Source: a virus | Length of the DNA: 64,000 nt | Virus record (IMG/VR): IMGVR_UViG_3300048851_000105 | Span: 1 to 64,000 of that record | Direction: 5' to 3' (one strand) | Shown: positions 2-63,024 of the stretch, in pieces | How positions within the stretch are numbered: the first letter of the stretch is position 1 | Layout: each line of letters opens with the position of its first letter | The notes under the pieces: generated by a model | What the model saw: only the letters and a program-made list of their open reading frames with translations | What the model was told of the DNA's origin: nothing | Databases searched by the model: none | Position numbers and translations under genes: made by a program

Positions 2-469
2 GGCGGCGGTGCTGTGCGCGGCGCTCGCTCGAACGTCGACAACATCCCGGCCATGCTCACGGCGGGCGAGGTCGTCGTCCGCAAGCAGGTCGTCGACAAG
101 GTCGGCATGCGGAATCTTCTCGACTTCAACCGCGGCGTGCTCTCCTACCAGGACCTCATGCTTCGCGCGATGGCCAACTCGAACCAGAACAAGAAGAAGG
201 GCTTCACCGGTGGCGGCTCTGGTCTCTCGTTCTTCTACGGAGGCGGCGTCGCTGGAGACTCGGAGTTCAAGGCTCCGCCTCCCGGTGGTGGCGCTACGCC
301 TCCGCCCTCGGCATTCTCGGGAGCGCCTGGAAGCGGCAACGGCGACATGAACTTCGGAGACATCAACATCTACAACCCCGTGGCGGAGACTTCCTCCGAG
401 TCGATCCCCCGGGCGATCCGTCGAACTGCCTCTCTCGGGGCATTCCGGAAGGAGGGCACTGGCTCATGA
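2..469 (+). CDS. Tape measure protein, C-terminal end (5-prime truncated by window)
   Basis: Frame open from window start; NVDNIPAMLTAGEVVV motif and Gly/Ser-rich tail typical of actinophage TMP C-termini; directly precedes Dit. Confidence 0.8.
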   Translation, partial: GGGAVRGARSNVDNIPAMLTAGEVVVRKQVVDKVGMRNLLDFNRGVLSYQDLMLRAMANSNQNKKKGFTGGGSGLSFFYGGGVAGDSEFKAPPPGGGATPPPSAFSGAPGSGNGDMNFGDINIYNPVAETSSESIPRAIRRTASLGAFRKEGTGS

Positions 470-3177
470 TCGAGCAGCGCACCGTCACCCACGAGTGGGA
501 GACCAGCCCCAACGCGAGTCGATCGATCCGTCGTGCCAACGGTCAGGTCGTCGGCACCAACCACATCATCAACCCCGCCGCGGGCGGCTCGTACGTTTCT
601 CTCACTCGGGCTGTAGCGTCCGATCGGCCTCTTGGCAGTCGTCCCAGGTCGTTCCGACTCCCCACCACGAGCAGCGCCTTCTCCGATTTCCCCATGCCTA
701 CGTCCGACAAGCCCGTAGCAGCCCCGGGCGAGACGTGGTGGGGACACGCACTGATTCAGGCGGACTCGACCGTCATCGGCACGCGAGGCGTTCGCCTCAA
801 CTGTCGATTCCTGGACGGCCCTAGCGGTGCGGTTCTGGGCTCTACCAATCAGATCATCTCCACGGCGCCTCAGGGCCTCTTCCGGCGCTGGACGGGAGCA
901 GCCAACGCTAGTGCTAGTGAGGAATATTCCGCGACTGCGAAGCGCACGAACCTGGCCCCCGGTGCTCGCGGGCAGGCGGGGGTGTCTTACGGTACCGGCG
1001 AGACGGTGACTCGCAACATCGCCACGCCTATGCCGAGCCCGAATGGCTCGACGACGGCACTTCGTGTTTCGTTCACCTCAGGACTCGGCAACGTCGGGTT
1101 CAAGATTTCGGGACTTCCCGTGCCGTCTCTGGGGTACGTGTTCATCAGTGCGTGGGTGTATGCGGAGACCGCCGCTCCTCCGTCGATGGCTGTGGCAATT
1201 TCTGGAGTGGCGGCCGGAGGCACGCTTCCTCTGGTTCAGGGCCAGTGGACTCGCATCTGGGGAGTCGTACGGCAGAACTCAGGAACGACCATGGACGCAG
1301 GCATGCGAGCCGCAGGTGGCACGCAGAACGTGGGCTCTTTCCTCGTCACCGACATTCAGATCGAAGTTGTGCCTGGCGCGGCCGTAGATTTGCCGTTGTA
1401 CCCATTCTTCGACGGAGACACCAAGACTCCGCTGAGCGGCAAGGTCCGGTCCTGGGCAGGTGCAGCCAACGCAAGTGCCTCCGTCGAGAGGGGGGCGGAC
1501 AATGTCACTCGTGTCAACTACGCCGTCGATGCCACAGGCGTCGTACATCCGGAGGCGGGCGGGGGATGGCTTCGATCGCGCTGGTGGGCACAAGGCACAG
1601 GCACGTACGCCAGCGTCACCGGCATCACAGATGGCCCTCTTCCGGGCATCACTGCATACGCTCGCAAGACGTGGAACACAGCCTCTACGTCGAGCGGCGA
1701 TACAGGTTTCGAGAATTCGAGGGGAAGTACGAATGGAGTGCCCGTATCGCCTGGCGAGGTCATCTCCATCTCTTCGTACCTGCGAGCGAGTGCGCCGCAC
1801 GGAGTCGCATCGATTCAGATCAAGTGGCTCGATGCGACCGGAGCGGCCATCAACTCCGCCTACATCTCGGGCCCGAACACGCCACTGGCAGCGAATGTGT
1901 GGACGAGACTTACCCTGACTGCCACGGCTCCCGCCCTTACTGCCTACTTGCACATCGTCTCCGACGTGGACGGTAGCGAGCCCTGGCCCGCGGGCTCCAC
2001 CCTCGACGGCACGGGCCTGCTCATCGAGCGATCCGCCACGGTTGGACCGTACTTCGACGGCAGTCTGCCTTCAGAGGAAACGATTGTTCTTCCCACAGGC
2101 ACGGACACGAACATCTACGAACTCCAGGTGGCTCTTACGGCTCCGGCAGGCACTAAGAACATCGACTTCGCCATCAGCCGATTGACCACGACGATCGCGC
2201 CAGACGGTGTCCTCGATGTTTTCTGGGCAACGGAACTCGCGCTCACGAAGATGGCTCCTGGGGTGACGCCGCTCTACTTCGACGGTGACTCGCCTCAGGC
2301 GGTGGACTACGTCAACGTCGAGCGCCCCGGCGCGCTCACTACGGACGAGTGGGTGGAGATCGACGGCATCCCGCTCAACACGCTCGCGTACAACATCACC
2401 ACGTGGGGAGGCGACCGCATCAGCCCTCCGGCCGTCCGCGGCGCCAACATCGTCGTGCCCGGCCGTCCCGGCCAGCAGTTCATGGCGAAGGAACTCGACG
2501 CCAACACCCAGACGCTCAACATGTGGGTCCAGGGCACGGACACGAGCGGGCGACAGACCGATCGCTCGCTCGCGAACGAGTTCGACAAGAACTGGCGCAT
2601 GCTCCGGAATCTTCTTTTCACGCCGCGGAAGCAGCGCCGGATGACCAAGCGCTGGTACGACCCGGTGAGTCGAGCCATCCGATCGGCCACGGGCCTCGTG
2701 TCCTACGGCGGCGGCCTGGAGCCGACCATGACCGGACGCGCCCGTGGGGTGTTCCAGGTGACGCTCGTCGTCGACGGCACCTTCTTCTACGAGACCCCCT
2801 ACGTCCTGCCGGTCTCGACCACGCAGCAGAAGACGTGGACGGTCAACGTCGATGGGGACTGGCGCACGACGGCGATCAAGGCCGAAATCCGCGGTCCTCG
2901 GGTCAATCCGAAGATCACCTTCATCGACCCCTCGGGCGCCGAAATCTGGTTCCAGTACAACGGCACGCTCGTGGCGGGCGAGTACATCGAGATCGACGTC
3001 GACAACTTCTCCGTCATGCTGACCTCGAACAACACGGTGCGCTCCGTGTCCGGCCGACTGTCCCACGGAGGGGACAAGTTCTGGGGCGCGCTCGAACCCG
3101 GCGAGAACAAGATCGTGCTCACCAGCAGTAACGGTGTCGGCGGCGCGATCGTCTCCTACCAGCAGGTATGGTTCTAG
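466..3177 (+). CDS. Distal tail protein (Dit) with N-terminal carbohydrate-binding-like repeats
   Basis: C-terminal EIDGIPLNTLAYNI...VRGANIVVPGRPG Dit-like domain; repeated W.GAANASAS and FDG motifs; ATGA overlap with TMP. Confidence 0.8.
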   Translation: MIEQRTVTHEWETSPNASRSIRRANGQVVGTNHIINPAAGGSYVSLTRAVASDRPLGSRPRSFRLPTTSSAFSDFPMPTSDKPVAAPGETWWGHALIQADSTVIGTRGVRLNCRFLDGPSGAVLGSTNQIISTAPQGLFRRWTGAANASASEEYSATAKRTNLAPGARGQAGVSYGTGETVTRNIATPMPSPNGSTTALRVSFTSGLGNVGFKISGLPVPSLGYVFISAWVYAETAAPPSMAVAISGVAAGGTLPLVQGQWTRIWGVVRQNSGTTMDAGMRAAGGTQNVGSFLVTDIQIEVVPGAAVDLPLYPFFDGDTKTPLSGKVRSWAGAANASASVERGADNVTRVNYAVDATGVVHPEAGGGWLRSRWWAQGTGTYASVTGITDGPLPGITAYARKTWNTASTSSGDTGFENSRGSTNGVPVSPGEVISISSYLRASAPHGVASIQIKWLDATGAAINSAYISGPNTPLAANVWTRLTLTATAPALTAYLHIVSDVDGSEPWPAGSTLDGTGLLIERSATVGPYFDGSLPSEETIVLPTGTDTNIYELQVALTAPAGTKNIDFAISRLTTTIAPDGVLDVFWATELALTKMAPGVTPLYFDGDSPQAVDYVNVERPGALTTDEWVEIDGIPLNTLAYNITTWGGDRISPPAVRGANIVVPGRPGQQFMAKELDANTQTLNMWVQGTDTSGRQTDRSLANEFDKNWRMLRNLLFTPRKQRRMTKRWYDPVSRAIRSATGLVSYGGGLEPTMTGRARGVFQVTLVVDGTFFYETPYVLPVSTTQQKTWTVNVDGDWRTTAIKAEIRGPRVNPKITFIDPSGAEIWFQYNGTLVAGEYIEIDVDNFSVMLTSNNTVRSVSGRLSHGGDKFWGALEPGENKIVLTSSNGVGGAIVSYQQVWF

Positions 3178-9364: not shown

Positions 9365-9881
9365 TGCTACTCCAGCCCCTGCCCCCGCGGCCCCGGGGAA
9401 TCCGTTCGACCTGAACACCATCATCTCGGGCGGCACAGGCGCCACGATCATCGGCGCGCTGTGGTACATCGGCAAGTCGATCTTCGACCGTGCTCTGCCG
9501 TCTCGCTCTGACGCTCGGGCCTCGACCCAACTCGTGCTCGAAGGCCTGAACAGCATGGTCAAGGTCCTCCAGGAGGACAAGATCGCGGACAGCGAGAGGC
9601 TGGCCGCGAAGCAGAAGCGCATCGACGAACTGGAGTCGGCCGCGGATGTCGACTACGACCGTATCCGTGAACTCCGGGACGAGATACTCGACCTCCAGAC
9701 TCGCCTCAATCAGAAGGACCGACACATCACGACGCTGGTGCGGGAACTCCGCCGGTTCGGGGCCCAGGTGACTGGCCTCGACCTGGAGGACATCGAGATC
9801 ACGCACGAGACGCGCCGCATCCAGCAGTCCATCCCCGAACTGGACGAGCAGGACACCACGGGCCCCACGCCCGCTCGCTAG
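9327..9881 (+). CDS. Membrane-anchored coiled-coil protein (lysis-cassette associated)
   Basis: N-terminal TM segment followed by long heptad region. Confidence 0.65.
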   Translation: MLTELLVLLVASSATPAPAPAAPGNPFDLNTIISGGTGATIIGALWYIGKSIFDRALPSRSDARASTQLVLEGLNSMVKVLQEDKIADSERLAAKQKRIDELESAADVDYDRIRELRDEILDLQTRLNQKDRHITTLVRELRRFGAQVTGLDLEDIEITHETRRIQQSIPELDEQDTTGPTPAR

Positions 9882-9908
9882 AAGATTCCTCACGAAAGAA
9901 GATTCCTC

Positions 9909-13819: not shown

Positions 13820-13878
13820 GCCCGAATCTTGTTCGTCTAACGCCCCACTTTCCCATTTCGTGGGGTAGCATCCTGCTC

Positions 13879-14043: not shown

Positions 14044-14048
14044 CAGGC
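14017..14048 (+). promoter_or_regulatory. Phage-sigma promoter motif copy 1 (GCAG-N16-CGAATAACAGGC)
   Basis: Matches 10-copy bipartite consensus; precedes SNF2 helicase. Confidence 0.6.
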
Positions 14049-14062
14049 AGGAGGGAATCTTC

Positions 14063-15697
14063 TTGCCACTAGCATTCGACGTCCGAGGCATGCCCGATGA
14101 GCGCAGGGAATCGCTCGCGTGGATGGCTCACGAGTCCAAAGACCGCCAACTGCCACGCCTGAGCGTTTGGAACTACGATCCCTGCCCCGTGCACGAGCGC
14201 GGCTGGTACGACGAACTCGGAGCCCAGCGTTTCAGCCCCAAGCCGGACTGCCGCAACTGCGCCATCATCCCTCGTGCTCACCAGCGCGTGGGAGCCCTGT
14301 GGCTCTACCTCCGCAAGAAGGGCCTCCTCGCGGACACCACGGGTGTCGGCAAGACCACACAGGCGGGCCTGCTCATCGCCATGATGATCGAGTCCGGCGA
14401 ACTCGACTTCGTCCGAGACCTCTCCCGAGGTGCCAAGGGCCGCGTGCTCGTCGTGCCCACCGCTCCCGCGCTCGCACAGTGGGAGGCGGAACTCCACCGC
14501 ATGATGCCGACCCTCAACATCGTGGTGGCGTCCGGCGGGATGTCCGCGGCTCAGCGCCGCCAGATGTACCTCACGCCGTGGCAGGTCCTGATCATGGGCC
14601 CGGAGATGTATCGCAACGATCACGAGAGGCTGAGGAATCTTCCCCTCGCTGCGCTCATCGTCGACGACGTGGACGCGCTCCGCAATCCGGACACCCAGAC
14701 CAGCGTCACGCTCGACAACCTCGGACGCCGGATCGATCGCTACATCATCATGAACGCCACCCCGCTCCAGAAGCGGCTGATGGAACTCCACGCCACCCTC
14801 GATGCGATCGGGGGCGAGCGCGCGCTCGGCGGCCGCGACACCTTCGAGCGGATGTACATCGATCGCCGGAACGGGCAACTCTCCTACCGCAGGCTGGACG
14901 AGGTCAAGCGGAACATGGCGCCTCTCGTGCTCCGGCGCACGGCCAGCGATCTCGACGACGTCGACATGCCGCGCATCCAGCCGCTCAACCACATGCTCGA
15001 TCTCTATCCGAGGCAGCGCGACAAGTACACCGAGTTGCAGCGAGGCGTCATCCGGCTCCTGAAGGAGAACAGGGAGCAGGTCAAGCGCGTCACGGCCGTC
15101 TCGAAACTCCACTACGGAGCCGCCATCTGCGCCGGGCTCGGCTCGCTGGGCGCCGACGACATCGAAGACGGCCCGGGCATGAGTGTGAAGCACGACTGGC
15201 TCATGGACCGGGTGAATGGCGAGTTCGAGGAGGACAAGATCGTCGTCTTCGCTCGGCTGAAGAACACGATTCGAGACCTCCAGTTCCGGCTGCGGGATCA
15301 GCGTGTCGGCTTCACCACCATCTGGGGAGAGGATTCCTCCAAGGAGGGACGACTGGCCGCCCAGAACCGCTTCCGGGACGATCCGAACTGCCGCGTGCTC
15401 ATCGGCACGAGCGCGATCGTGCGAAGCCTCAACCTCCAGGTCTCGCGGCGGCTCGTCAACATCGACATGATCATGAACCAGGCGCAGATGCACCAACTCG
15501 CAGGGCGCATTGCGCGCATCGGCTCGATGCACCGGACGGTCTACGTGCACAACCTGCTCACTGTCGACACCCAGGAGGAGCGCTACCTGCCCATGCTCGA
15601 ACGCGAGAGCGCGCTGGCCGGGCACATGTGGGGCGAGGAGTCCGAGTTGTTCGAGCAACTCAGTCCCATGGCGATGCTCCAACTGATCACAGGCTAG
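14063..15697 (+). CDS. SNF2-family (SF2) helicase
   Basis: LLADTTGVGKT, IVDDVD, IMNATP, FRDDPNCRVLIG, QLAGRIARIG motifs; TTG start chosen from GGAGG SD. Confidence 0.9.
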   Translation: MPLAFDVRGMPDERRESLAWMAHESKDRQLPRLSVWNYDPCPVHERGWYDELGAQRFSPKPDCRNCAIIPRAHQRVGALWLYLRKKGLLADTTGVGKTTQAGLLIAMMIESGELDFVRDLSRGAKGRVLVVPTAPALAQWEAELHRMMPTLNIVVASGGMSAAQRRQMYLTPWQVLIMGPEMYRNDHERLRNLPLAALIVDDVDALRNPDTQTSVTLDNLGRRIDRYIIMNATPLQKRLMELHATLDAIGGERALGGRDTFERMYIDRRNGQLSYRRLDEVKRNMAPLVLRRTASDLDDVDMPRIQPLNHMLDLYPRQRDKYTELQRGVIRLLKENREQVKRVTAVSKLHYGAAICAGLGSLGADDIEDGPGMSVKHDWLMDRVNGEFEEDKIVVFARLKNTIRDLQFRLRDQRVGFTTIWGEDSSKEGRLAAQNRFRDDPNCRVLIGTSAIVRSLNLQVSRRLVNIDMIMNQAQMHQLAGRIARIGSMHRTVYVHNLLTVDTQEERYLPMLERESALAGHMWGEESELFEQLSPMAMLQLITG

Positions 15698-15707: not shown

Positions 15708-16400
15708 ATGAATCCCATGCCGACTCCCCTGACACCGCGACAGCGGGAACTCGTCGCCTCGAACAAGGGGCTGGCTGAGAAAATCTCACACGACTACCTC
15801 CAGCGTGCTCCTGGACTGGAGATCGACGAGGTGGTCGCTGTCGCCTACCAGGGCCTCATCGACGCCGCGCTCCGATTCGATCCGTCCCGTGGCGTCCCCT
15901 TCGGCGGATTCGCTCGGCAGATCATCCACTTCGCCATCCAGATGTGGCAGCGAGACGAGGACTACCTCCAGCGCAACATCCGCACGGACTACAAGAAGAT
16001 GCTGGAGAGCGGCTACACCGAGCGCGGCGGCATTAGTCCCTCCCTCGTCGAGCGGACCGGACTCACGATGAAGCGCATGGTGACCGTGGTCCGGGCCGTC
16101 GCCGCGAAGCCCACGAGCAGCGAGCATCTCGTTGAGGCAGAGGCGGTGCTCGCCCACCCCGACGTCGATGTCGAATCTTCTGTCGTGGTCTCGGCCATCC
16201 AGGGCTCCGTGGCCACCGTCTACCAGAGCCTCCCCGGCGTACAGCAGATCATCGTCGCCATGGTCTACTTCCAGGGCCTCGAACTCCGCCAGGTGGCCGA
16301 GAATCTCGGCACCAGCGTCTCCTTCGTCCGACAGTCCCACAGCGAGGCGGTCTCTCTCCTTCACGAGGAGATGGTTCGACAGGCACGCATGCCGGATTGA
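15708..16400 (+). CDS. RNA polymerase sigma factor, FliA/WhiG/SigF-like
   Basis: Region 2 (VAYQGLIDAALRFDPSRGVPFGGFA) and region 4 (IVAMVYFQGLELRQVAENLGTSVSFVRQSH). Confidence 0.9.
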   Translation: MNPMPTPLTPRQRELVASNKGLAEKISHDYLQRAPGLEIDEVVAVAYQGLIDAALRFDPSRGVPFGGFARQIIHFAIQMWQRDEDYLQRNIRTDYKKMLESGYTERGGISPSLVERTGLTMKRMVTVVRAVAAKPTSSEHLVEAEAVLAHPDVDVESSVVVSAIQGSVATVYQSLPGVQQIIVAMVYFQGLELRQVAENLGTSVSFVRQSHSEAVSLLHEEMVRQARMPD

Positions 16401-17659: not shown

Positions 17660-19133
17660 CGCCCGCGAGCATGGCGCGTTCGTGCTCGGTGCGATCGTTC
17701 CCGGCCGTAGGGACCTCCTGGAGAAGGCCACCAGGGTCCTCACTACCGAGCACTTCGTCGCCACCGAGCAGCAGATGCTCTTCGGCCTGCTCACCCAGTA
17801 CCACGACCGAGTCGGAGGAGTCCTCACCCAGGGCGCCCTCGACGATCTCACCGCGCGCATCGACGTCGGCCGCGCCGCGATCTATCGGGAGGCCTACCTC
17901 GGCTACGCCGAATCTTCTGTCGGCGACGAGCAGTTCGAGTGGTCGCTCGATCAACTCCGTGAACTGGCCAGCGAGCGCGCGACGTCCGAGGCGATCGTCA
18001 ACGCCATGGAGATTCTCCGCACCGGCCAGGAGGTCGACGGAGAGCCACTGAAGGGCGCTGAGGACGCACGATCCTACCTCTCGCTTTCCCTGGGGCAGAT
18101 CGACCGCCAGATGACCATGCAGGCGGCCCCTGAGGGCGACGTGCGGGCCGAGGAGAAGGACATCCTGTCCGACTACCAGACCCGCAAGGAGATCGCTCTG
18201 AGCGGCGCCAGTCGCGGTGTGCTCTTCGGTGTCGACGCGCTCGACCAGAAGATCGGCGGGCTCCAGCGCGGCGAAGTCGTGCTCATCGCGGGCTACTCCT
18301 CGGACGGCAAGACGACCCTGCTCACTCAACTCGCGTGGTCTGCGGCGATCGAGCAGGGCAAGAACGTCGTCTTCTTCACCACGGAGACGCTGCGAGATCA
18401 GGTCCGCAGGAAGATTCTGGCCCGGCACTCGATGCTGGAGCAGTTCGGCCTGCACGCCACTGGCGGGATCAACTCCTACGACATCAAGAACGGCACGATC
18501 CCCGAGCCCCTCGAAGACAGATTTCGAGAAATCGTCTCTGACTTCACGAATAACCCCGACTACGGCACGGTCTACATCAAGCAGGTCCCGCGCGGTGCCA
18601 GCCTCACGTACCTGGAGCAGTCGCTCGCGAGCCTGGAGCGGAAGTTCGGGGTCGACCTCGTCTGCATGGACTACCTCGCCCTCCTCACCAGCGAGCGGAA
18701 GCGTGGCACCACCCGCGAGGAACTCGCCGCGATCATGAAGGACTCGAAGCAGATCGCGACGTCCTTCGGCGGCGGCAAGGGCGTGCCCCTCGTGAGCCCG
18801 TGGCAGGTCAGTCGCGCGGCTCGTGAGAAGGCAGCAGACGCAGGCAAGTACACCAGCGCCAGCCTCAGCGAGACGGCCGAGGCCACGAACACCGCGGACC
18901 TCATCGTGGGCCTGCTCGCGCCCATCGACAACAGCGAGCGTCGCGTGCAGGTCGACATGCAGATTCTGAAGAACCGCGACGGCCCTACGGCCAACGACTT
19001 GCGCGTGGACGTGGACTACGGCACCTCGTGGTTCCGCTCGCGCGCACTCCTCGGATCGGCTGCGACCATGCAGCCCGTCCACGCCTCCATGGCACCATCT
19101 TCGGGCGACCCGCTCGCAGACCTCATCGGCTGA
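17652..19133 (+). CDS. dnaB: DnaB-like replicative helicase
   Basis: LIAGYSSDGKTT Walker A, FFTTE, CMDYLALL, QVSR, KNRDGP. Confidence 0.9.
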   Translation: MPDAREHGAFVLGAIVPGRRDLLEKATRVLTTEHFVATEQQMLFGLLTQYHDRVGGVLTQGALDDLTARIDVGRAAIYREAYLGYAESSVGDEQFEWSLDQLRELASERATSEAIVNAMEILRTGQEVDGEPLKGAEDARSYLSLSLGQIDRQMTMQAAPEGDVRAEEKDILSDYQTRKEIALSGASRGVLFGVDALDQKIGGLQRGEVVLIAGYSSDGKTTLLTQLAWSAAIEQGKNVVFFTTETLRDQVRRKILARHSMLEQFGLHATGGINSYDIKNGTIPEPLEDRFREIVSDFTNNPDYGTVYIKQVPRGASLTYLEQSLASLERKFGVDLVCMDYLALLTSERKRGTTREELAAIMKDSKQIATSFGGGKGVPLVSPWQVSRAAREKAADAGKYTSASLSETAEATNTADLIVGLLAPIDNSERRVQVDMQILKNRDGPTANDLRVDVDYGTSWFRSRALLGSAATMQPVHASMAPSSGDPLADLIG

Positions 19134-22924: not shown

Positions 22925-23155
22925 GTGACTGAGAAGAGCCCGCTGACGCCGGACCAGAAGATTCTGGTCGATCGGATGCGCGCGCTCGCGGACGCCCGAG
23001 ACGACTACGACGACCCGAACGTCCGCTGCGGCACAGATGCGGTTCGGCTGGTCGCGGACATCCTCGAAGGCAAGAACGAGGGATGGGGCTGGCTCCCCTC
23101 TTGGCGCTGGAGTGAGTTCGGTGTCCCCGAACCGAGCGACGATGACGACCACTGA
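22925..23155 (+). CDS. Hypothetical protein
   Basis: GTG start after promoter; normal codon usage. Confidence 0.55.
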   Translation: MTEKSPLTPDQKILVDRMRALADARDDYDDPNVRCGTDAVRLVADILEGKNEGWGWLPSWRWSEFGVPEPSDDDDH

Positions 23156-23970: not shown

Positions 23971-24178
23971 TCACGGTGCCGTGCGACACGCCGCTCAGGA
24001 GAGGTTGCGTGTCGCGGACGGAGTGATACTCTCCTCAGATCGGGTGTACGTCACCCTCGTAACGGAGCCACACAACCACGCTCCAGAGAGGAACCGCACT
24101 GCATCCGAATCTTCTGCTCTGGGTCTGGTAGCATCGTCTCACCTTCGTTGTGTGAGGTGGCTGTCTTGACCCACAGCA

Positions 24179-24208
24179 GGGGCTCCCCGTCTTCGGATGG
24201 GGAGCCCC
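24179..24208 (+). terminator. 13-bp hairpin with cUUCGg tetraloop in leader of second sigma gene
   Basis: GGGGCTCCCCGTC-TTCG-GATGGGGAGCCCC; no long U tract, so role uncertain. Confidence 0.55.
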
Positions 24209-33753: not shown

Positions 33754-33767
33754 AGAGAAGATTCCTC

Positions 33768-40663: not shown

Positions 40664-41710
40664 CTGAACGCAATCGAGGTCAGGCACTTCCAGAGCCTCC
40701 ACCATGTCGCGCTGGAACTGGCGCCCTTCACGGTCATCGTGGGGCCCTCCTCCAGCGGCAAGAGCGCGCTCGGGCGTGCCGTGCGCATGCTCACCTCCAA
40801 CGCTCGCGGATCGTCCTTCATCACCCACGGGGAGACCGTGTGCACAGTGTCGGCTACGACCGAGCATGGCCAGGTCACCCTGCGCAAGGGCAAGGAAGAT
40901 TCCTACGTCGTCGTGCCCTCCGATCCCGAGCAGACGCAGCGCACCTTCACCAAGTTGGGTGGCGCCGTGCCGGAGGAGGTCAGCACCTTCCTGGGCATCC
41001 CGCCGAAGGACGCCATCAACTACGCCGGGCAGTTCGACCGGCCGTACCTCCTCGACGACACGGGCAATGAGGTCGCACGCACGCTGGGCGAACTGACCAA
41101 CGTCACGATGGTCTTCGAGGCCGCACGCGAGAGCCGCCGAGCAGGACTCGCGCAGTCCTCCACCCTGAAGACCCGGCGCAGTGACCTCGCGGCCGACGAG
41201 GCGCGCGTCGACGAGTACCGCGGGCTGAAGGGTCAGCGCGAGGCTCTGGACCGAGCCGAGACAGCGATCTCGGAGGCAGGCCGCATCCGTGCACGCATCG
41301 AGCGACTCACACACCTCACGACCTCCCTGGCGTCCGCAGGAGCCGCGCTGAGGGCCATCGAGGACCTGCCCGCCGTACCGGACATCCAACGCGTGCGAGA
41401 GGCGCAGAAGGTCGCACAGCGCCTCGCACGTCTCCGCGACCTCGTGGCTGGGCTGAAGCCTCTCCCGCAGGTGCCAGCCGCTCCGCCGAGCGCGGACGCA
41501 GCCCGAGCGATCGTGGCTCGCATCGATCGCTTCCAGACTCTTCGCGAGCAGATGCTCGCTACCGAGGAGATCGCCAGTGCAGCGGACGACGCCTGGCAGG
41601 CAGCCATGGAGGCTCGTGCTGACGCGGAAGCCGATCGGCTCCGAATCTTGTCTGAGGCGGGCACCTGCCCGACCTGTGGTCAGAACACCAAACACCTGGA
41701 GCACGCATGA
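40661..41710 (+). CDS. sbcC: SbcC/Rad50/gp46-like ATPase
   Basis: FTVIVGPSSSGKSAL, coiled coil, C-terminal CPTCGQ zinc hook. Confidence 0.8.
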   Translation: MLNAIEVRHFQSLHHVALELAPFTVIVGPSSSGKSALGRAVRMLTSNARGSSFITHGETVCTVSATTEHGQVTLRKGKEDSYVVVPSDPEQTQRTFTKLGGAVPEEVSTFLGIPPKDAINYAGQFDRPYLLDDTGNEVARTLGELTNVTMVFEAARESRRAGLAQSSTLKTRRSDLAADEARVDEYRGLKGQREALDRAETAISEAGRIRARIERLTHLTTSLASAGAALRAIEDLPAVPDIQRVREAQKVAQRLARLRDLVAGLKPLPQVPAAPPSADAARAIVARIDRFQTLREQMLATEEIASAADDAWQAAMEARADAEADRLRILSEAGTCPTCGQNTKHLEHA

Positions 41711-42359: not shown

Positions 42360-43087
42360 GCGAGCCGAGTCTCCCCATCGTCGGCATCGGTGGGCTGAAG
42401 GAGAGCGGCAAGGACGCGTTCGCGAGCCGCCTGGTGCGGGCGCACGGCTACCGCATACGAGGGATGAGCAACGTCCTCGACGAGATGCTCTTGGCCGTCA
42501 ACCCGCACATCGTCATCCGAGAGGGCGAGCCCGCGTTCGACATCCCCACCGGCGCCGACGTCGAGGGCAGAACAGCCGCGGTCGTGCAGTATCGAGACCT
42601 GCGCGCCTACATCTCGTACGACGAGTCCAAGAAGATTCGGGACGTACGCGAGCGCCTTCAGGGTCTAGGCACCGAGGGCGGCCGGGAACTCATCGACGAG
42701 CAGGTGTGGGTCGACCTGGCCAAGCAGAGCGCTGGTCGCATCGCAGACCGCAACTGGGACGAGGGCTACCCCACCGTCATCACGGGCATCCGCTACCCCA
42801 ACGAGTGGGAGATGATCCAGAAGCGGAACGGCGTGCTCATCTGGGTCGACCGGCCCGAGATCACCGAGCGCCACCGGATCGCACAGGCCAAGGGCGACTC
42901 GACCGCGCTGCACTCCAGTGAGAACACCCTCACCGCCGACGACTTCGACATCGTGATCACGAACGATCACGACCTGGAGCACCTGTATGACGAGGCGGAC
43001 GTGTTCGTCTCCGAGGCCCGAGGGGCACAGCAGTCGCTGGAGTTCCTCGCACGTGCGCTGACCAACTACGACCCGGAAGACATCTGA
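42356..43087 (+). CDS. Deoxynucleoside monophosphate kinase
   Basis: IVGIGGLKESGKD, LQGLGTEGGRE, VITGIRYPNE, HSSE. Confidence 0.85.
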   Translation: MSEPSLPIVGIGGLKESGKDAFASRLVRAHGYRIRGMSNVLDEMLLAVNPHIVIREGEPAFDIPTGADVEGRTAAVVQYRDLRAYISYDESKKIRDVRERLQGLGTEGGRELIDEQVWVDLAKQSAGRIADRNWDEGYPTVITGIRYPNEWEMIQKRNGVLIWVDRPEITERHRIAQAKGDSTALHSSENTLTADDFDIVITNDHDLEHLYDEADVFVSEARGAQQSLEFLARALTNYDPEDI

Positions 43088-44214: not shown

Positions 44215-45266
44215 CCTACACCGACCAGAGCATCATGCTCATCGGCGACCTGCACTTCAGGGACACGCCCCCGCGCAACGCCACGGACACGTACGTCGAC
44301 GACCTCTTCGACCTCCTCGACTGGACGATCGACTATGCCGTCGACAACAAGATTCGGACGATCGTGTGGGCCGGGGATATCTTCGACCACAAGCAGCCGA
44401 GCCGCACTAGCCATGCGCTCGTGCTCCGTCTCGTGTCACGTGTGAAGGAGATCATCGCCGCGGGTATCGAACTCATCATCGTCGTCGGCAACCACGACAT
44501 CTCGAATGACGTGGTCGAGAGCGCGTTCACCAAGCAGCCGCTCGCTCTCCTCTACGCCGCGGGCGCCAAGGCTCTCGATGGCTGGCACGACACGCTCCCC
44601 CTCTACGGCATCCCGTGGCAGCAGCGCTGGCACGCGCCCGGCGTCCTCGACACCGTGTTCGAGCGTTACCGCACAGCGTTGGGCCGAGACGAGACCGACA
44701 CGCCTGGCGTATCGAGCATGGAGGAGTCACCCGAGCAGACACTCGTGGTCACGCACGCGAGCATCTTCCCCGATGACCTGCACCGAGACATCATGTACGA
44801 GGCCTTCAGCGCCTCTGAGGTGGCCGAGGCCATGTCCGGAGCAGGGAACCTCTACCACGGGCACATCCACGACGACCACGGCGTCTACGAGGCCGGTGGA
44901 GTGCAGTTCTGCAATCCCGGCGCCCTGAGCCGAGGCAGTGCGAGCGAGAGCAACATCACGCGCACCATCCACCTCGCCGTCTGGACACCACCGCGGACGT
45001 ACGACGCTGACGGCTGGACGGATGGCGGCTTCGACATCGTCGACATCCCGATCGCCAAGAGCGCCGAGGAGACGTTCCGACTGGAGAGCGTGCGCGAGCA
45101 CCAGAGCAACCAGAAGACGCTGGAGCGGTTCCTCGCCGGGCTGGGCTCCACCGTGTTGGACATCACCGACCGACACGCCGTCGTCCGTCACATCCGTGAG
45201 AGGCAGGACATCAGCCCTCGTGTCCGTGAGAGAGCCATCGAGATGCTGGAGGCGCAGGATGCGTAA
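44208..45266 (+). CDS. sbcD: SbcD/Mre11/gp47-like metallophosphoesterase nuclease
   Basis: IGDLH, AGDIFD, VGNHD, GHIH, NPGALSR. Confidence 0.85.
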   Translation: MVTYTDQSIMLIGDLHFRDTPPRNATDTYVDDLFDLLDWTIDYAVDNKIRTIVWAGDIFDHKQPSRTSHALVLRLVSRVKEIIAAGIELIIVVGNHDISNDVVESAFTKQPLALLYAAGAKALDGWHDTLPLYGIPWQQRWHAPGVLDTVFERYRTALGRDETDTPGVSSMEESPEQTLVVTHASIFPDDLHRDIMYEAFSASEVAEAMSGAGNLYHGHIHDDHGVYEAGGVQFCNPGALSRGSASESNITRTIHLAVWTPPRTYDADGWTDGGFDIVDIPIAKSAEETFRLESVREHQSNQKTLERFLAGLGSTVLDITDRHAVVRHIRERQDISPRVRERAIEMLEAQDA

Positions 45267-46476: not shown

Positions 46477-47377
46477 ACTGTTCAAAGCATGCTCAACGAC
46501 GTCGTCGGTTGGGAGGAGGGGCCGAACGGGCGCACCGTCACGGTGTATGCGCGCGTTTCTGGAAACCGAATCTTCTTCTCTCGCGACGAGGCCATGGTCT
46601 ACCCCGAGCCCGGCACAATCATCCGCGCGTTCCCCTCCACCTATCTGGTCCTAGGACTGGAGCGGATGGTCAACGCTGACGTCCTCCACGTCGAGAAGGT
46701 GATGCCTCGTGGCTAAGGTCCCCGATCCATTGCCGCAGCACTCGCAGGCGGCCCGCGACGAGGCGTACAAGCGCTACCACGACGACGTGAGCGACGAGAC
46801 AGGCGCGAGCATCGACGACTACGGCTACAGCGAGACAGCACGGTCAGCGTTCCTCGCGGGAGTGCAGTGGCAGGCCGAGCGCGTGCGGGCTCTCAGTCAG
46901 AAGCGGGACAGGCTTTGGCTGAAGGTCAACGACCTTGTCGCCGCGGGCCCGGACAACATGGAGGAATACCGCGCGACCTGGGCTGAGTGGATCGCAGCCT
47001 CCAACGCACTCGACGAGGCGCAGCGTGGCTAGGTTCACCGACCCTCGCGCGATCGTTCTGCTCATGGCTAGGGAGATCGACCCGCAGCCCGAGGCGCCTG
47101 AGGACGAGGAGTACATCACCGAGTGGGTCCCCGACCACACGTGCGGGGGTCACGGCGATCCAGGGTGCGCGGCATGCTGGGTGCAGACCTACGACGACAC
47201 CGTCGAACGGCAGAACAAGATTCGGAGCACCTGAGCATGGAAGCAGTAGCCATCGCAGCCGTCACCGTCGTCCTCGTGGCGTTCGGCATCTGGCTGGACA
47301 ACCTCAGTCGACGCGTGCAGGCACTCGAACGGGCAGCAGAGCACGACGACGAGACCGAGAAGGAGAATCCCTCATGA
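46474..47377 (+). other. Four small hypothetical genes (46474-46716, 46709-47032, 47025-47234, 47237-47377)
   Basis: Overlapping or abutting + strand ORFs with phage codon usage. Confidence 0.55.
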
Positions 47378-48633
47378 GACCGATCGAGGTGTACGCCCTG
47401 GCGATCACGATCCTCCTGGGTATCAGCATCATCATGGGCATGCGCGGCGTCATCGGCAGACGATGCAGCGCACGGACCTACTACCGAGCGTGGAGCAAGA
47501 CCCTCAGGTGTGAGAAGTTCCACAAGCACGAGGGACCCCACCGATCCGGTCGATGCGAGTGGTCCGCAGACATCAAGGTAGACGCGCGGCCGCCGTTGGC
47601 AATCGCGCCGGGTGTCCCCGCTCATCTCCTGAAGAACACCGAGCCCGCCGAGCAGCCGATCGATCCGAACAACACGATCACGGCCAGGCTGAAGCGCATC
47701 GAGACAGCGGTCAACGACACGCTCACCCACATCACGAAGGCGGCACCCAGGCTTTTGGACGACGAGCCTGGAGCGCCCAAGAGCATGTCCAAGCGCCTCT
47801 CCCCGGACGAGGTGGCCGAGTGGGCGGTGAAGCGCTGGAACAACAGGCACTCCATTGGCACTCGCGTGCACCTGAAGTCCGAGCCGCCGACGCCGAGGCG
47901 CACACAGTCCAGGGCCTACGTCGATCCCACGGGCAGTGCTCTGGTCCGCGTCTCGAACATCGCCGTGCCGGTCGACATCGACGACCTCATCGTGATCGAG
48001 AAGCGAGAGGAGCCGGAGAAGTTGTCGCAGCAGGAGGACGCCAAGCGCTGGAATGAGAAGTTCCCCATCGGCACCCCCGTGCGGATGGAGTCTGACCCGC
48101 ACACGGTCAGGCGCACGACCACGCTGGCTCACGTCGCTCTGAGCGGACGAGCAGTCGTGCACATCACGGACTACCCCCACGCCGTGATGGTTCGACGACT
48201 GTGGGTCCAGCGTGAGCAGCCGGAGCCCTACCGGCCGTCCCCGTTCGCGGCCAGAGTGCTGAAGGCCAAGCGGGAGGGCACGCCCCCGGCCTATGCGCGT
48301 TTCATGAATCGAACGCCCAATCCCTCACAGGGACAGGCAGGGACTCTGTTCATCCCACCAGGCCTCGTGACCGCGCACGCTCACAACCCAGCCACGGAGG
48401 ACCCGCGCTACTTCGACGGGACCACGCCTCCCGTCGTCAAGCCGTGGTACGACCAGAGCATCGTCCGTGCCAACCACGAGGCAATCAAGAAGATTCTGGC
48501 CGAGGGTCCCCTCCGTCCCGAGATCGACCAGTGCACCAGCACCCTGGGTAAGAACCAGAGGTGCGTCAAGCCAGCAGGCCACTTCGACCACAGGCACAGG
48601 GCAGCAGAGGGATGGGAGTGGACAGAGGTATGA
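47374..48633 (+). CDS. Mosaic protein: TM anchor, two Cys/His micro-motifs and two WN..(H/F).IGT.V repeats
   Basis: WNNRHSIGTRVHL and WNEKFPIGTPVRM repeats; CEKFHKHEGPH and CVKPAGHFDHRH. Confidence 0.7.
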   Translation: MRPIEVYALAITILLGISIIMGMRGVIGRRCSARTYYRAWSKTLRCEKFHKHEGPHRSGRCEWSADIKVDARPPLAIAPGVPAHLLKNTEPAEQPIDPNNTITARLKRIETAVNDTLTHITKAAPRLLDDEPGAPKSMSKRLSPDEVAEWAVKRWNNRHSIGTRVHLKSEPPTPRRTQSRAYVDPTGSALVRVSNIAVPVDIDDLIVIEKREEPEKLSQQEDAKRWNEKFPIGTPVRMESDPHTVRRTTTLAHVALSGRAVVHITDYPHAVMVRRLWVQREQPEPYRPSPFAARVLKAKREGTPPAYARFMNRTPNPSQGQAGTLFIPPGLVTAHAHNPATEDPRYFDGTTPPVVKPWYDQSIVRANHEAIKKILAEGPLRPEIDQCTSTLGKNQRCVKPAGHFDHRHRAAEGWEWTEV

Positions 48634-49739: not shown

Positions 49740-50268
49740 GCAGGCCGGACTTCGACGAATCCGTGATCGACCCCGAGGCAGCAGGAGAACCGCACATGAT
49801 CGAGACCATCGTCCTCGTAGGCACCGGCGCTCTGTGCGCGCTCGCCGGATTCGTCATCGGATCACTCACCAGCGGGCGCAGGCGATGAGAAGCCTCAGGA
49901 GCGACTACGAGGGCTTGGGGTGGGTCAGCGTACCCGAGAGTGCGGAAATCGTCTCAGACAGGCCCACAGAGCCTCCCACGTGGGGATTCACCCACCGGAC
50001 GCCCCGCAGTCGATACGTCGAGTGCATCGTGTGCGGCAGATCGGGCGCAGGGTGGACCACAGCGACACTGACGCCTCCCGTGCCGCTTCCGCAGACCGGG
50101 TTCTACCGCTGGCAGCGGAAGTGCATGGTCGAGCACACCTGGGAGTGCGCGTGCGGAATCTTCTTCCCGAGTCAGCAGGCGCTCGCCGTCCATGTGGTCA
50201 AGAACTGGCAGTACCACAAGCCCGGACACGGCCGGATGGATCGAGTCGGCAACAAGAAGCATGGGTAA
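49736..50268 (+). other. Two small genes (49736-49888 membrane peptide; 49885-50268 with CxxC and C2H2-like motif)
   Basis: ATGA overlaps; CACG...LAVHVVKNW. Confidence 0.5.
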
Positions 50269-51451: not shown

Positions 51452-52327
51452 ATGGCCTACTGGAACGGCGACGAGCCGGAGCCCGTGAAACCCCACCCCG
51501 TCTACCAAGGCGGCCCGTGCCCTGAGTGCGGCGCCCCTCGCGGCCACCAGAACCCCTGGTGCTACTCGTACGATCTGACCTGAGAGGACAGACCAATGAA
51601 GCGTTTCGCCGTCATCAATACCGAGACGGGCAATCTGAGCCCGCAGTCGTTCGACAGCCAGGCTGAAGCCGAGGCCGTCCGCGACGAGTGGAATGCCGCC
51701 TACAAGCCGCAGTTCCAGACCAACGAGGTCGTCGAGTTCGTCATCCTCCCCCGCAAGGCGGCCTGACCATGGCAATCACACTGGAGATTCTCCGAGCCGC
51801 CATCATCAAGGAGGACATCTGCCCCGTGGAGGAGTTCGACGATCTCATCGCCGACATCCGCACGCAGGCCCACGAAGGCGGCATCGACGCCGCACATGCC
51901 GGGTTCTGAACGCGCCGCGGCCGACCTCCCCCCCCCGATCGACGAGAGAGAAGATTCCTCATGACCATCCACAACGATCCCTACGCCGACCTCCCCGAGG
52001 GTATCCCCACGGGGGACTACCTCGATCGCAGCGGAGGCGAGCCCCTCATCGTCGGCGGCCCGTACGACGCAGAGATGGCCGAGCGAGCCGCGATCCAGGC
52101 GGATGCTGAGAACGAGCGCGATGGGTACCGTGACTGACACCGTCCTGTTCTTCATGGTCGAAGGACCGTTCGACGGCGAGACGCGCATGCTCCCCAAGGA
52201 CGTCTCGCACCTTCAAGTGACGCGCATGACGCAGGAGGGGCACCTCACCCTGTCCGGGCTGTATCTCCCCGCAGTGCGGATGCCGTCCGGAGATCGGGCC
52301 ATGCTGTGGCTAGCGGACGAGGATTAG
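51452..52327 (+). other. Five small genes (51452-51583, 51596-51766, 51769-51909, 51961-52137, 52121-52327)
   Basis: SD-led short ORFs after the 51396 promoter. Confidence 0.55.
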
Positions 52328-52381: not shown

Positions 52382-53798
52382 ATGGTCCAGGTAGCAGAAG
52401 CCCCAGTCGTCAAGATGGTCCACCACTGCCGCGAGTGCGGCAAGGAACTGGCCTACGTGCCCTTCTACGGCCCCGAATACGGTCACATGATGCCTCACGA
52501 CCTGCCCGCCGAGTTCGTCCACGCAGACGGCCCCCAAGGCCACCCCGCTGAGCCCCGCGCCTATTGCCGCGAATGCCAGATCGAGGGTGTCGGCGCCTGC
52601 CAGCACTGGGGAGCAGGACCGTGGCACTGACCGGAGGCATGCGGGTCCACTACAGCGACCGCGCCGACACGGTCACCCGCTACGGGATGACCTCCATGGC
52701 TCAGGTGATCCTGGCCATCCACGACGACGAATCTTCTGTCGTCGGCTACAGCCTCGAAGGAAGGGACTACTGATGGACACGTTCAAGCCCGGCGAGAAGG
52801 TCCGCATCGGCAAGGGCATCCGCGAGTGGGAGGTCGTCAACGACTTTCGCGATCGGGATATCCCCCTCGTGGTTCTCCGCACCCACGCTGTGCGCCGCAT
52901 GACGCGCACCCTGCTCGGGGACAGGCAGATCGCCCGTCTGGGGAGGGTCCAGTGACCATGAGCATCACCGAGGCGCCTGTCCTCCTGACGATCGCCAGCG
53001 GCGGGCACTGGATTCCTGTCCCTCGATCGACTCTCCTCGCAGCCGTGCGTACTGCCAACGCGATCGACACGCGCCCCTCGACCTTCGACCGCGCGCCCCG
53101 CTTCTGGGTGCCCGTCAAGCGCTACCGTGTCGCCCAGGAGGCCGGGAAGGTGCATGTCACGAGCGAGGGCAAGACGCTCTACACGAGCGACACCCATGCG
53201 GAAGCGTGGGCATGGCTGAGCGCAGGAGGAGTGCTGTGAGCGACCCCACACCCACCCCCCTGGAAATCATCCAGAAGTCACTGGACCGGGCGCCGTCAAA
53301 CGCGCGTACCGCACGGCGCATCCTGATCGACCTGGAGCGCGCGGGCTACGTCGTCCGCGAGCAGGCGCCTACGCCCCTGAATGAGCGCATCGTCCTCATC
53401 GGCCGGGACATGCGCGAGTGGTTCACCGCGAAGTCCGACGCGATCCTGGACCGCATCCAGACGAGCACGACTCAGGACGTCATGCTCTACCACGACGCAG
53501 TTGGCGTTCTCGTGGCCGCACGCCAACTGGTGGAACTGACGGCTCAGGGCACCCTGGAGGGGGAACTCACCCCCGAGCAGCAGCGTGCCCTCTCAGGGGA
53601 GCGCGAGGTGACCGGGTGAGCAGGCGGCGCCGAACCCCCGCAGAGATGGCCGTCGTCCACCTGGGGCGCGCTCTGAGTAGCCTCATCCGCAGCGGGCTAG
53701 GCGAATCGTCTCCCCAGTACACGAAGGCCATTCGACTGGTCGCTGAAGCGAGCGATGCTCTCCTGGACGCGATCGAGAGCGGCGAGCCTGAGGACTAG
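52382..53798 (+). other. Six small genes (52382-52630, about 52639-52773, 52773-52955, 52952-53239, 53236-53619, 53616-53798)
   Basis: Translationally coupled short ORFs. Confidence 0.55.
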
Positions 53799-55407: not shown

Positions 55408-55821
55408 GTGACGAACACCGAGAAGATTCGGGCCGCCTACATCCGGTCGTTCGCTAGTCACGCGGTTCTGGAGACCGCAGCAGCGAAGCAGTTCGACGAG
55501 TGGCTTCAGCGCGAGCGTGCGAGGGCATGGGAGGAGGGCAAGGACGAGGCTCTGGGCGCCGGAGATCGGGATGCTCTGATCAATCCCTACGACCCTCCCA
55601 GGGAAGCCTCTCCTGTGGACCTCGACCTGCCTGAGGGTGGGCTCGCTGTCGGCACAGTCGTCTCGTACTACCGTGATCCCTCCATCCGCGGGAAGGTGAG
55701 TCTCGCGCAGGTTTCCGGTGACCACTGGGCCTATGCAGTGGCCTGGGACTACGCCCCCGAGCGCTCCACAGGCTGGTACACCCGCTCCATGCTTCGACCC
55801 GAGACCGAACAGAAGGACTGA
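55408..55821 (+). CDS. Paralogue-family protein (FDEWL..ERARAWEEG...NPY) with SH3-like C-terminus
   Basis: Motif shared with neighbours. Confidence 0.65.
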   Translation: MTNTEKIRAAYIRSFASHAVLETAAAKQFDEWLQRERARAWEEGKDEALGAGDRDALINPYDPPREASPVDLDLPEGGLAVGTVVSYYRDPSIRGKVSLAQVSGDHWAYAVAWDYAPERSTGWYTRSMLRPETEQKD

Positions 55822-61371: not shown

Positions 61372-62665
61372 ATGGCCGCCAAGCCTCGCATCTTCGCTAG
61401 CACTCCACACGGCAAGGTCGTGAATCCCATTCTCCGCGAACTGCGCGAGAAGAAGCGGGACGTCTACGATCTCCTGATGGACCTGGATTCCATGTGGGCC
61501 GACCAGTTCAGCGATGCCCAGGTCTGGCACGCACGCGAGGTTCTCTCACTCTTGGGCTCGCTCCGAACCGTCAAGGGGGCGTCGTGAACTACGCGATCGG
61601 CGTCTGTGCCCTGATCCTGGCCTACGTGCTCGCAGCGTGCGCTCTGGTCTCCGTGGTCGGCGCCGCCTTCCGCGGCACATTCCCGGCCGAGGAGGTCGCG
61701 TCCGTGGTTCCCCTGGCCGTCATGGCCGCTCTCGTCTGGGGTGCAGGACGCGCCCTGACACACACGAAGGAGTCGGCCGAGTGAGCAAGCAGATCGAGTC
61801 CATCCGCATCTGGACGGACGCGGACTGGCATGTGCACATTCGCCTGCGGTCCGATATGCGGAACACTCCGCAGAAGTTGCAGCGCTTTGCGCGCAGCCTC
61901 ATCGTCGATCATGTCGCCCGAGCCGAGCAGCAACTCGGAGAGCGTCTGGTTGTCGCAGCCAGGCGCGTCACCCAGAGCATCTATGTCCCCATCACCCCGG
62001 CGATCGTCCACGAGGACGGCACTGTGGAGTTCATCGAAGGAGCCCGCCCATGACCACCTCACAGCCCGTAGCAGCCCGTCTGACGCCCAAACACGGCTGG
62101 AACATCGACCAGCACCAGGACGGCACGTTCACGTGCTCACGAGGCGATGTGTCGCTTCGCGTGACGGTCATTCACGACTCCGTGCACTTCCAGGACGCTC
62201 GCCCCGGCACGGTGAACGCAGACCAGTACACCTACCTCGCCGAGCAGATCGGGGAGATGCAGAACCAGCAGATGATCACCGCCGCCATGCAGGAGAAGAT
62301 TTGATGGTCGAATCAACTGAGCGTCGTCGCGAGCGTGCACGACTGAAGGCGCGGCTCTTTCCTCACATCTACGGCACAGACCCCGTCCGCCGAGAGGCCG
62401 CCACCAAGGCCATTCAGAACTTCGACGCTGAGACGCGGGAGAAGGGTCTGTGAATCCGGAGACGATCCCCGAGATGCAGGTGCACGGCTGGCTCATCGAT
62501 CACGCAGGCGCCGACACGTTCCGAGCCACCAAAGGCGACGTGACCGTCAGCATCGAGTACGAGGACCCGACCACGTTCGTGCACACCCCGGACGTCATGC
62601 CTGCGGATGAGCGAGCGACTGTGGAGGACGCCATCGTCAACACCTGGCCAATCGAGTCATGGTGA
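61372..62665 (+). other. Six small genes (61372-61587, 61584-61784 membrane, 61781-62053, 62050-62304, 62304-62453, 62450-62665)
   Basis: Coupled ORFs; 62050 and 62450 share a (W).ID....(G/D)TF...(R/K)GDV(S/T) motif. Confidence 0.55.
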
Positions 62666-63024
62666 GAGGCTTCGACGTCCCCTTCGGCTGGGAGGACGAG
62701 CACCTGCGGATGCCCCGTCCTGTTCCACATCGGCGTGTGCGCTTCATGGAGTACGTCGAGTCGGTCACTGAGGACGGCCGCCGCAACGTGGCCATGCGCG
62801 CGCTCGTGGTGCCCAACGTCGCGGTCCTTCAGTGGGAGGTCGTCAGCGGCGAGATCGACTACGTGCGCGTGTACGCCCCGTACCAGCGTCAAGGCATCGC
62901 GACTCGGCTGTGGTGCGCGGCGAATCTTCTTCAGCCGGTGCTGCACTCGGCCTGGAGGAGCACGGACGGGGACGCCTGGGCTCGCGCAGTCGGCGGCGAC
63001 CTGCCGAAGAACGAGTGGCACTGA
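62659..63024 (+). CDS. GNAT-family acetyltransferase
   Basis: IDYVRVYAPYQRQGIATRL motif A; DGDAWARA end. Confidence 0.8.
   Translation: MVRGFDVPFGWEDEHLRMPRPVPHRRVRFMEYVESVTEDGRRNVAMRALVVPNVAVLQWEVVSGEIDYVRVYAPYQRQGIATRLWCAANLLQPVLHSAWRSTDGDAWARAVGGDLPKNEWH

Follow-up and report, generated by a model that had tools for sequence, protein, structure and literature searches.

A short asymmetric word dispersed on both strands is selected at the DNA level in the genomes of a clade of large phages

The 64,000-nucleotide stretch analyzed here (the window) comprises positions 1 to 64,000 of a 125,778-bp IMG/VR virus record, IMGVR_UViG_3300048851_000105, in which the 9-mer GAATCTTCT recurs on both strands. 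The ends of the record overlap by 127 bp (1-127 = 125652-125778), a signature of circular assembly that leaves a unique length of 125,651 bp. This direct terminal repeat is exactly 127 bp long and matches a k=127 assembly overlap, so the true ends and the packaging mode cannot be read from the record; nothing in the analysis pointed to the packaging signal that the original prediction had listed among possible roles for the 9-mer. The G+C content was measured at 64.8%, lower than the roughly 67% first estimated, and gene calls based on codon bias placed 211-214 of ~220 genes on the + strand. Annotated products include tail proteins, a helicase, a DnaB-like helicase, a family-A DNA polymerase, a UvsX/RecA-like recombinase, ThyX, two sigma-70-like proteins, a DnaG-type zinc-ribbon protein, clamp-loader-like proteins, a deoxynucleoside monophosphate (dNMP) kinase, Mre11/SMC-like proteins, and a holin (gene at 9909; family phrog_443, E 2e-13). 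The second sigma-70-like gene matches region 2 only and adjoins the clamp-loader-like genes, an arrangement reminiscent of T4 late transcription (gp55 plus clamp). The genome yielded no tyrosine integrase; serine integrases and repressor genes or their homologues were not searched. By DNA similarity, no GenBank phage matched the source genome, and the nearest one is Microbacterium phage Magritte, which is syntenic and has a polymerase of 48% identity. The source genome belongs to a clade of unidirectionally transcribed phages of ~125 kb that are probably lytic and infect Actinobacteria.

All 23 copies of GAATCTTCT in the original prediction were recovered in the window, 12 on the + strand and 11 on the - strand (Table 1), whereas shuffles of the window that preserved dinucleotides gave 0.23 +/- 0.47 copies, with a maximum of 2. 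The whole record holds 40 copies, two of which are one site inside the 127-bp overlap, leaving 39 unique copies (24 + and 15 -). Counts of the nested cores, with the end overlap untrimmed, were 74 for AAGATT, 67 for AAGATTC, 56 for GAAGATTC, 40 for AGAAGATTC, and 23 for AAGAAGATTC. The 9-mer is enriched in the window as claimed, but the real unit proved to be a degenerate, asymmetric word of 10-12 bp common to the whole clade, of which GAATCTTCT is the local form. Its T-rich strand reads RAWTCTTSTY (23 copies in the window against 0.47 expected) and its A-rich strand aAASAAGAWTYsG, with aAGAAGATTCgG as the A-rich consensus. Within 40 nt on either side of the word there was no conservation past one or two flanking bases; since the flanks are unrelated, the copies are not parts of a longer repeat, and repeats of a longer element were rejected as their source. 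The word occurs about once per 1-3 kb, on either strand and mostly inside genes (45 of 55 copies in the source genome, with similar proportions in relatives). Its spacing is roughly uniform and covers all regions of the genome, with a coefficient of variation of 1.21 in G002 and of 0.76-0.95 in the other five of the six genomes compared. Regular periodic spacing was rejected, as the evenness exceeds that of random placement only slightly (P 0.02-0.15 in four of the six).

Table 1. Copies of the word in the window, followed by candidate DNA-binding genes and clamp-loader-like genes
Feature	Positions	Strand	Context
exact 9-mer	112..120	+	in gene 14-469, CGG AAT CTT (R-N-L)
exact 9-mer	2607..2615	+	in tail gene 466-3177, CGG AAT CTT
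exact 9-mer	9880..9888	-	first of tandem pair; overlaps stop TAG of gene 9327-9881
exact 9-mer	9897..9905	-	second of tandem pair; 3 nt 5' of holin ATG at 9909
variant GAATCTTGTT	13824..13833	+	intergenic
exact 9-mer	14055..14063	+	intergenic, upstream of helicase gene
exact 9-mer	16173..16181	+	GAA TCT TCT (E-S-S) in first sigma-like gene; same word and site in G004
exact 9-mer	17910..17918	+	GAA TCT TCT in DnaB-like helicase gene
exact 9-mer	22956..22964	-	sense AAG ATT CTG (K-I-L); class forced by RGATCY avoidance
exact 9-mer	24107..24115	+	intergenic 23970-24239
exact 9-mer	25599..25607	+	CGA ATC TTC (R-I-F) in clamp-loader-like gene
exact 9-mer	27104..27112	-	sense GGA GAA GAT TCG; rare codons also at homologous site in G001, G002, G011 (shifted word)
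variant GAATCTTGT	28610..28618	+	in DNA polymerase gene
exact 9-mer	30879..30887	-	sense GAA GAT TCG in DNA polymerase gene
exact 9-mer	33269..33277	-	sense AAG ATT CGG (K-I-R)
exact 9-mer	33416..33424	+	CGA ATC TTC (R-I-F); same gene as 33269 copy
exact 9-mer	33756..33764	-	start-associated, 3 nt 5' of ATG 33768
variant GAATCTTGTC	41643..41652	+	
exact 9-mer	42630..42638	-	in dNMP-kinase gene; G004 carries AAGAAGAATC at same site
variant GAATCTTGTT	44346..44355	-	
exact 9-mer	46568..46576	+	CGA ATC TTC
variant GAATCTTGTT	47214..47223	-	14 nt 5' of next gene start
exact 9-mer	48488..48496	-	sense AAG ATT CTG
exact 9-mer	50156..50164	+	small open reading frame 50125-50268
exact 9-mer	51949..51957	-	start-associated, 3 nt 5' of ATG 51961
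exact 9-mer	52729..52737	+	GAA TCT TCT GTC
exact 9-mer	55421..55429	-	sense AAG ATT CGG
variant AAATCTTCTC	62293..62302	-	directly 5' of gene start 62304
exact 9-mer	62922..62930	+	GCG AAT CTT
variant GAATCTTGTC	63645..63654	-	
gene	15708-16400		first sigma-70-like protein
gene	20207-20653		DUF6011 protein
gene	23121-23702		DnaG-type primase zinc-ribbon protein
gene	23695-23970		91-residue HTH_17/excisionase-like protein
gene	24239-24943		second sigma-70-like protein
gene	24947-25732		clamp-loader-like protein
gene	26940-27923		clamp-loader-like protein

We evaluated the word across the clade. Polymerases with 45-55% identity to that of the source genome are encoded at fifteen IMG/VR loci, and 11 related genomes or large fragments were assembled for comparison (G000 denotes the source genome). 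Related genomes are ~125 kb long and share only ~45% protein identity with one another. One of them, the 126,252-bp contig G006:C17 (loci L141-L147; G+C 61%), lies in a bin labelled uncultured Cellvibrionaceae, yet is a phage of the clade and is apparently mis-binned; 68 G000 proteins match it at 47% identity. The relatives also vary in their tRNA genes, of which ARAGORN found none in the source genome, 19-32 in G001, G002, G005, and Magritte, and 2-3 in G003 and G004.

Compared with an order-3 Markov expectation, RAWTCTTST was 2.6- to 11.6-fold enriched in nine genomes, with 48-118 copies in the seven full-length high-count genomes. The word is conserved across the clade while its flanking positions drift slowly, as can be seen from the most abundant 10-mers: GAATCTTCTT (23 copies) in G000; GAATCTTCTC (11) and AAATCTTCTC (7) in G001; GATTCTTCTC (14) in G002; AAATCTTGTT (19) and AAATCTTCTT (16) in G003; GATTCTTCTT (24), GATTCTTGTT (19), and GAATCTTGTT (17) in G004; AATTCTTCTT (13) and AATTCTTGTT (11) in G005; and GAATCTTCTC (8) and GAATCTTCTT (8) in G006 contig 17. 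Copies are sparse in Magritte, G011, and G012, at 0.2-0.7 per 10 kb against 2.8-8.9 elsewhere. A quick concatenated tree of eight proteins nested these low-count genomes among the high-count ones, which implies at least two changes. G011 (loci L148-L153) carries GA[AT]GATTCTGAG 20 times, 19 on the gene strand and 1 on the other, partly in intergenic DNA. At the site in the clamp-loader-like gene, the G011 word aligns base for base with GGAGAAGATTC of G001 and G002, which makes it a shifted, oriented descendant of the clade word; by analogy it looks stoperator- or promoter-like. Its copies are often found 20-150 nt 5' of genes in a small-gene region at 74-100 kb (e.g., L152:4459 and 6966).

An explanation that requires no reader is that the excess is purely a by-product of restriction-site avoidance and context-dependent codon or mutation bias. 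The source genome is devoid of AGCT (~400 expected), AGATCT, GGATCC, CTYRAG (CTCGAG, CTCAAG), CTGCAG, GCCGGC, and GAGCTC, and contains one RGATCY site in 125 kb, an AGATCC at genome position 115609. With both AGATCC and AGATCT disallowed, Lys-Ile before a C-initial codon is always spelt AAG ATT C (22 of 22 cases), a class that makes up 22 of the 27 AAGATTC cores with the A-rich strand as sense. About a third of all AAGATTC cores (~20 of 66) come as a free by-product of RGATCY avoidance. GAATCT is likewise a one-transition derivative of GGATCT, and in actinobacterial chromosomes, too, the word outnumbers its reversed control. In all genomes analyzed, the T-ending Ile and Asn codons (ATT, AAT) occur mostly before a C-initial codon, even away from the word, and this general context bias inflates naive expectations. 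The avoidance profile is specific to each relative (GTCGAC, for instance, occurs 140 times in the source genome and 0-2 times in most relatives), and such profiles could help to infer hosts.

The original prediction had limited the effect of avoidance to some AAG ATT C cases, and the other classes of copies bear this out. [RG]-I-F was spelt xGA ATC TTC in 13 of 17 cases, though the preferred codons are CGC and GGC; N-L-L was spelt AAT CTT CTx in nine of 14 cases and E-S-S as GAA TCT TCT in four of 11, with GAA TCT TCT GTC encoding E-S-S-V in three genes (16173, 17910, and 52729), as had been reported. Amino-acid usage is affected as well: each of the tripeptides [RG]-I-F and N-L-L occurs at about twice the frequency expected from amino-acid composition, so the pull of the word extends to protein sequence. 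Even among the forced Lys-Ile cases, nine of 22 have a preceding codon that ends in AG, about three times the ~12% estimated from composition. The specificity spans 10-12 positions and several reading frames. A synonymous shuffle within genes that also forbade the avoided sites, the test proposed with the original prediction, gave 17.6 +/- 1.6 copies in the source genome (maximum 23, counting 8 intergenic copies held fixed) against 39 observed, and 6.5 against 24 for the + strand alone. G001, G004, and G005 retain hundreds of AGCT and RGATCY sites (143-267 RGATCY), yet carry the enriched word; plain synonymous shuffles of these genomes, again with intergenic copies fixed, gave 18.0 against 50, 41 against 118, and 21.5 against 57 copies, respectively. 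ATT or AAT was chosen in 66-80% of cases in G001 and G004 only after AAG with C next and not after other xAG codons, which indicates specificity for the word rather than for GATC-type sites. Magritte and G011 are syntenic and have the same G+C content, yet lack the dispersed word. We therefore rejected avoidance of RGATCY and AGCT as the whole explanation, on the strength of the shuffles, the other reading frames, and the relatives that keep RGATCY, and we regard a pure by-product as very improbable. The word is confirmed to be selected at the DNA level, overriding codon preference, as had been proposed. The case shows that restriction-site avoidance can imitate part of a motif signal and that the two need to be separated before functional claims are made.

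The same avoidance bears on the idea that the word is a target at which a methyltransferase or other enzyme tags the phage DNA. The word is asymmetric and dispersed, and in G000, G001, G002, and G004 it contains GAWTC, a subset of GANTC methylation sites; the variants of G003 and G005 (AAATCTT, AATTCTT) are without GAWTC. A search of the genome for the N6_N4 (PF01555), D12 (PF02086), and C5 (PF00145) methyltransferase families, the only three searched, returned no match. The genome depends instead on avoiding restriction sites, at least five of them completely, and this disfavors protective modification. Targets of DNA-modifying enzymes are, moreover, normally not enriched. The methylation mark put forward in the original prediction is thus the explanation to which we give the least credence.

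Both strands of the word are enriched, 15-20-fold with the T-rich strand as sense (29 copies against 1.5 expected in G000; 40 against 2.6 in G004) and 5-10-fold with the A-rich strand as sense. The even split of orientations that had been described holds for the source genome (26 A-rich to 29 T-rich on sense) and fails as a general trait, as raw counts in most relatives favor A-rich on sense 2-4:1. This ratio roughly tracks the ease of encoding each strand (as xAS AAG AWT Y). The orientations are interspersed, with no polarity switch along any genome analyzed, and we rejected a switch in polarity or one related to an origin.

Conservation of individual sites, another check proposed at the outset, exceeded expectation. 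Among genomes at ~45% amino-acid identity, 11 of 141 site pairs coincided against 1.5 expected, and one homologous site was flipped in orientation between genomes. A conserved G-E-D-S site in a clamp-loader-like gene uses the rare codons GGA GAA GAT TCx in G000, G001, and G002, and the same position is spelt or encoded otherwise in Magritte, G004, and G005; GAA TCT TCT in the sigma-like gene is common to G000 and G004. In a comparison of G001 with the G006 contig, which are 74% identical in nucleotide sequence, the word was kept at 15 of 34 aligned sites (~44%), and 10 of the 34 were identical as against 12.7% for random 9-mers, while the totals were 50 and 48 copies. Turnover of sites at steady totals points to selection mainly on copy density, with moderate constraint on each site.

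A subset of copies is associated with gene starts. Among the A-rich-on-sense copies, 45 of 239 (19%) lie 0-15 nt 5' of a start codon, compared with 2.4% for random positions. As described earlier, AGAAGATTCCTCATG stands at three gene starts in the window (9909, 33768, and 51961), the first of which has two copies in tandem, 17 bp apart; there a 13-nt direct repeat fills the 27-nt gap 5' of the holin gene. GA(A/G)AGAAGATTCCTC(AC)ATG occurs at four genes in G000, and GGAGAAGAATCATG occurs ~11 times in G002. These copies would suit a signal in RNA or translation, in which the A-rich mRNA strand (ASAAGAWUY) works as an element of gene starts, of ribosome binding, or of RNA-level regulation and the copies inside genes are of secondary importance. 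The bias of most relatives towards A-rich on sense agrees with such a role, and phages of Microbacterium and Mycobacterium are known to carry start-associated sequences (PMC7302621). Nevertheless, 81% of the A-rich copies are away from starts, the gap to the ATG differs by genome (0 in G002, 3-5 in G000), and the T-rich-on-sense copies, which are more enriched still, are randomly placed relative to starts. We consider this explanation unlikely.

A compact, asymmetric word that is blind to orientation best fits a monomeric protein acting on double-stranded DNA genome-wide. We tentatively favor the reading that the word is a docking site of a putative clade-specific DNA-binding protein that would bind as a monomer. 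This reader would be sequence-specific and probably phage-encoded, with the duplex AAGAAGATTCGG as its target. It may act genome-wide in a manner that depends on dose or density, for instance to control transcription globally or to organize the chromosome, and copies on ribosome-binding regions, such as the tandem pair at the holin start, could serve as local operators.

Several observations weigh against a docking site of this kind. With G000 and G001 proteins as queries, no gene's presence tracked the abundance of the word, and none occurred in every high-count genome while being missing from Magritte, G011, and G012. The DNA-binding candidates in the source genome (the HTH_17/excisionase-like protein, the two sigma-like proteins, the primase zinc-ribbon protein, and the DUF6011 protein; Table 1) are all encoded by core or near-core genes that are also found in low-count genomes. 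The holin orthologues of G001, G003, and G005 are without the word upstream, so gene-specific regulation is not conserved there, and the need of a lytic phage for 40-120 intragenic sites in both orientations is left without explanation. We also considered and rejected the Lsr2-like and other DNA-binding proteins of Magritte as readers, as they do not track the word. No match to ParB_N (PF02195) was found in the genome, and on that search we excluded a clamp site of the ParB/KorB type. A promoter for the phage sigma factors was rejected as well: there is no -35-like partner, and intergenic DNA is enriched equally in both orientations, start-associated copies aside.

Also unlikely, in our view, is that the word is a phage-owned 'self' signal whose density is read by the phage's replication or recombination machinery. 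Its reader could be, for example, a primase or a helicase-associated zinc-ribbon protein with an unusually long site of 10-12 nt; the genome would be tiled on both strands, and lineages with a changed reader specificity would shed or shift the word. A related proposal, which we hold to be similarly unlikely, is a replisome signal in which the single-stranded word is a preferred primase start, used by the zinc-ribbon protein and the DnaB-like helicase, or a signal for another component of replication or recombination. Copies would then be spaced at about the length of Okazaki fragments on both strands, since forks move in both directions during recombination-dependent replication. The phage has its own helicase, primase zinc ribbon, polymerase, clamp-loader-like proteins, and UvsX/RecA-like recombinase; the copies are evenly spread at one per 2-5 kb per strand, with density conserved rather than position; and the low-count lineages retain the same core genes, as expected if specificity and not gene content had changed. 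However, known DnaG- and T7-type primases read 3-5 nt, not 10-12, and the strand ratio follows coding ease and not replication polarity. A replisome signal would also leave the start-codon copies and the holin tandem pair unexplained, and two sublineages live without the dispersed word.

If the word is read by a protein, then a whole clade of large actinobacterial phages would possess a layer of recognition across the genome that skews the choice of codons and amino acids; no such layer was described for these phages in the literature searched. The clade offers natural experiments in the form of lineages with differing versions of the word (GAATCTTCTT, GATTCTTGTT, AAATCTTGTT, AATTCTTCTT), the shifted, oriented version of G011, and two lineages with few or no dispersed copies, including the cultured Magritte. 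With this natural variation, a reader protein should be findable by covariation or simple binding assays.

Other words are strongly enriched in the source genome, namely ATCACAGGCATG (9 copies), GCCAATGGTA/ACCATTGGC (7-9), TTCTCGAAA/TTCGAGAAA (11), GTAACGTA (8), and AGGAATCCTC (12, partly at gene starts). They occur genome-wide, with an example at 14040-14095 in the window, and relatives carry palindromes of the GCAATTGCAA type or CGATAGTA words. All of these probably serve the phage sigma factors as promoters or operators.

Comparison with known systems first concerns words read by host enzymes. The word might recruit or deflect a host factor, as a Chi-like site for AdnAB/RecBCD or a site for actinobacterial topoisomerase I, and a host reader would explain why no phage gene tracks the word. 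As with Chi, which is also abundant in some phages (PMC12315714), the word is a short genome-wide signal embedded in coding sequence and kept by density selection while sites turn over. Unlike Chi, a host word that is abundant and polar in the host chromosome, it shows no strand polarity, and its rarity in four actinobacterial chromosomes, which may not include the true hosts (2-40 copies per 2-9 Mb), indicates that it is not a Chi-like host word in those four. The strong site of mycobacterial topoisomerase I is C(G/T)CTT(C/G) (PMC6379724). The two share the core TCTT(C/G) and the host phylum, and the core WTCTTS fits five of the six positions, including the C/G ambiguity. They differ in that the first position is A/T rather than C and the required cytosine at -4 is absent (PMC6379724, PMC6101483), and counts of the canonical hexamer in the window show no enrichment (171 against 152 +/- 12). 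The phages bring their own recombination module, and Magritte has the avoidance profile of G001 and G006 contig 17 but is without the word. We consider a host-factor site improbable.

Other parallels come from phages of the same host phylum. The operator/stoperator of Cluster A mycobacteriophages is a 13-bp asymmetric site with more than 20 dispersed copies that is read by a monomeric repressor of the L5 gp71 type (PMC9283540). The word resembles it in being asymmetric, at 10-12 bp and 39-118 copies per genome, and its lack of a partner half-site implies a monomeric reader; the G011 variant is further alike in being oriented with transcription (19:1) and partly intergenic. It is unlike the stoperators in that most copies are intragenic and on both strands rather than in promoters or short intergenic spaces, in that the 29 T-rich and 26 A-rich copies on sense in the source genome show no correlation of orientation with transcription, and in that individual sites turn over while density stays. 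The distinction from L5-type stoperators and from Chi drawn in the original prediction therefore holds in the source genome. The start-associated sequences (SAS) and the EC, EG, and EI motifs are intergenic, gene-oriented, and present in 5-12 copies (PMC7302621). Like SAS, a subset of copies of the word lies directly 5' of start codons, in the ribosome-binding position and oriented with the gene; their conservation far exceeds that of ordinary ribosome-binding sites, and the hosts are of the same phylum, with the relative Magritte infecting Microbacterium. The word departs from SAS in being written a further 40-100 times into coding sequence, in both orientations.

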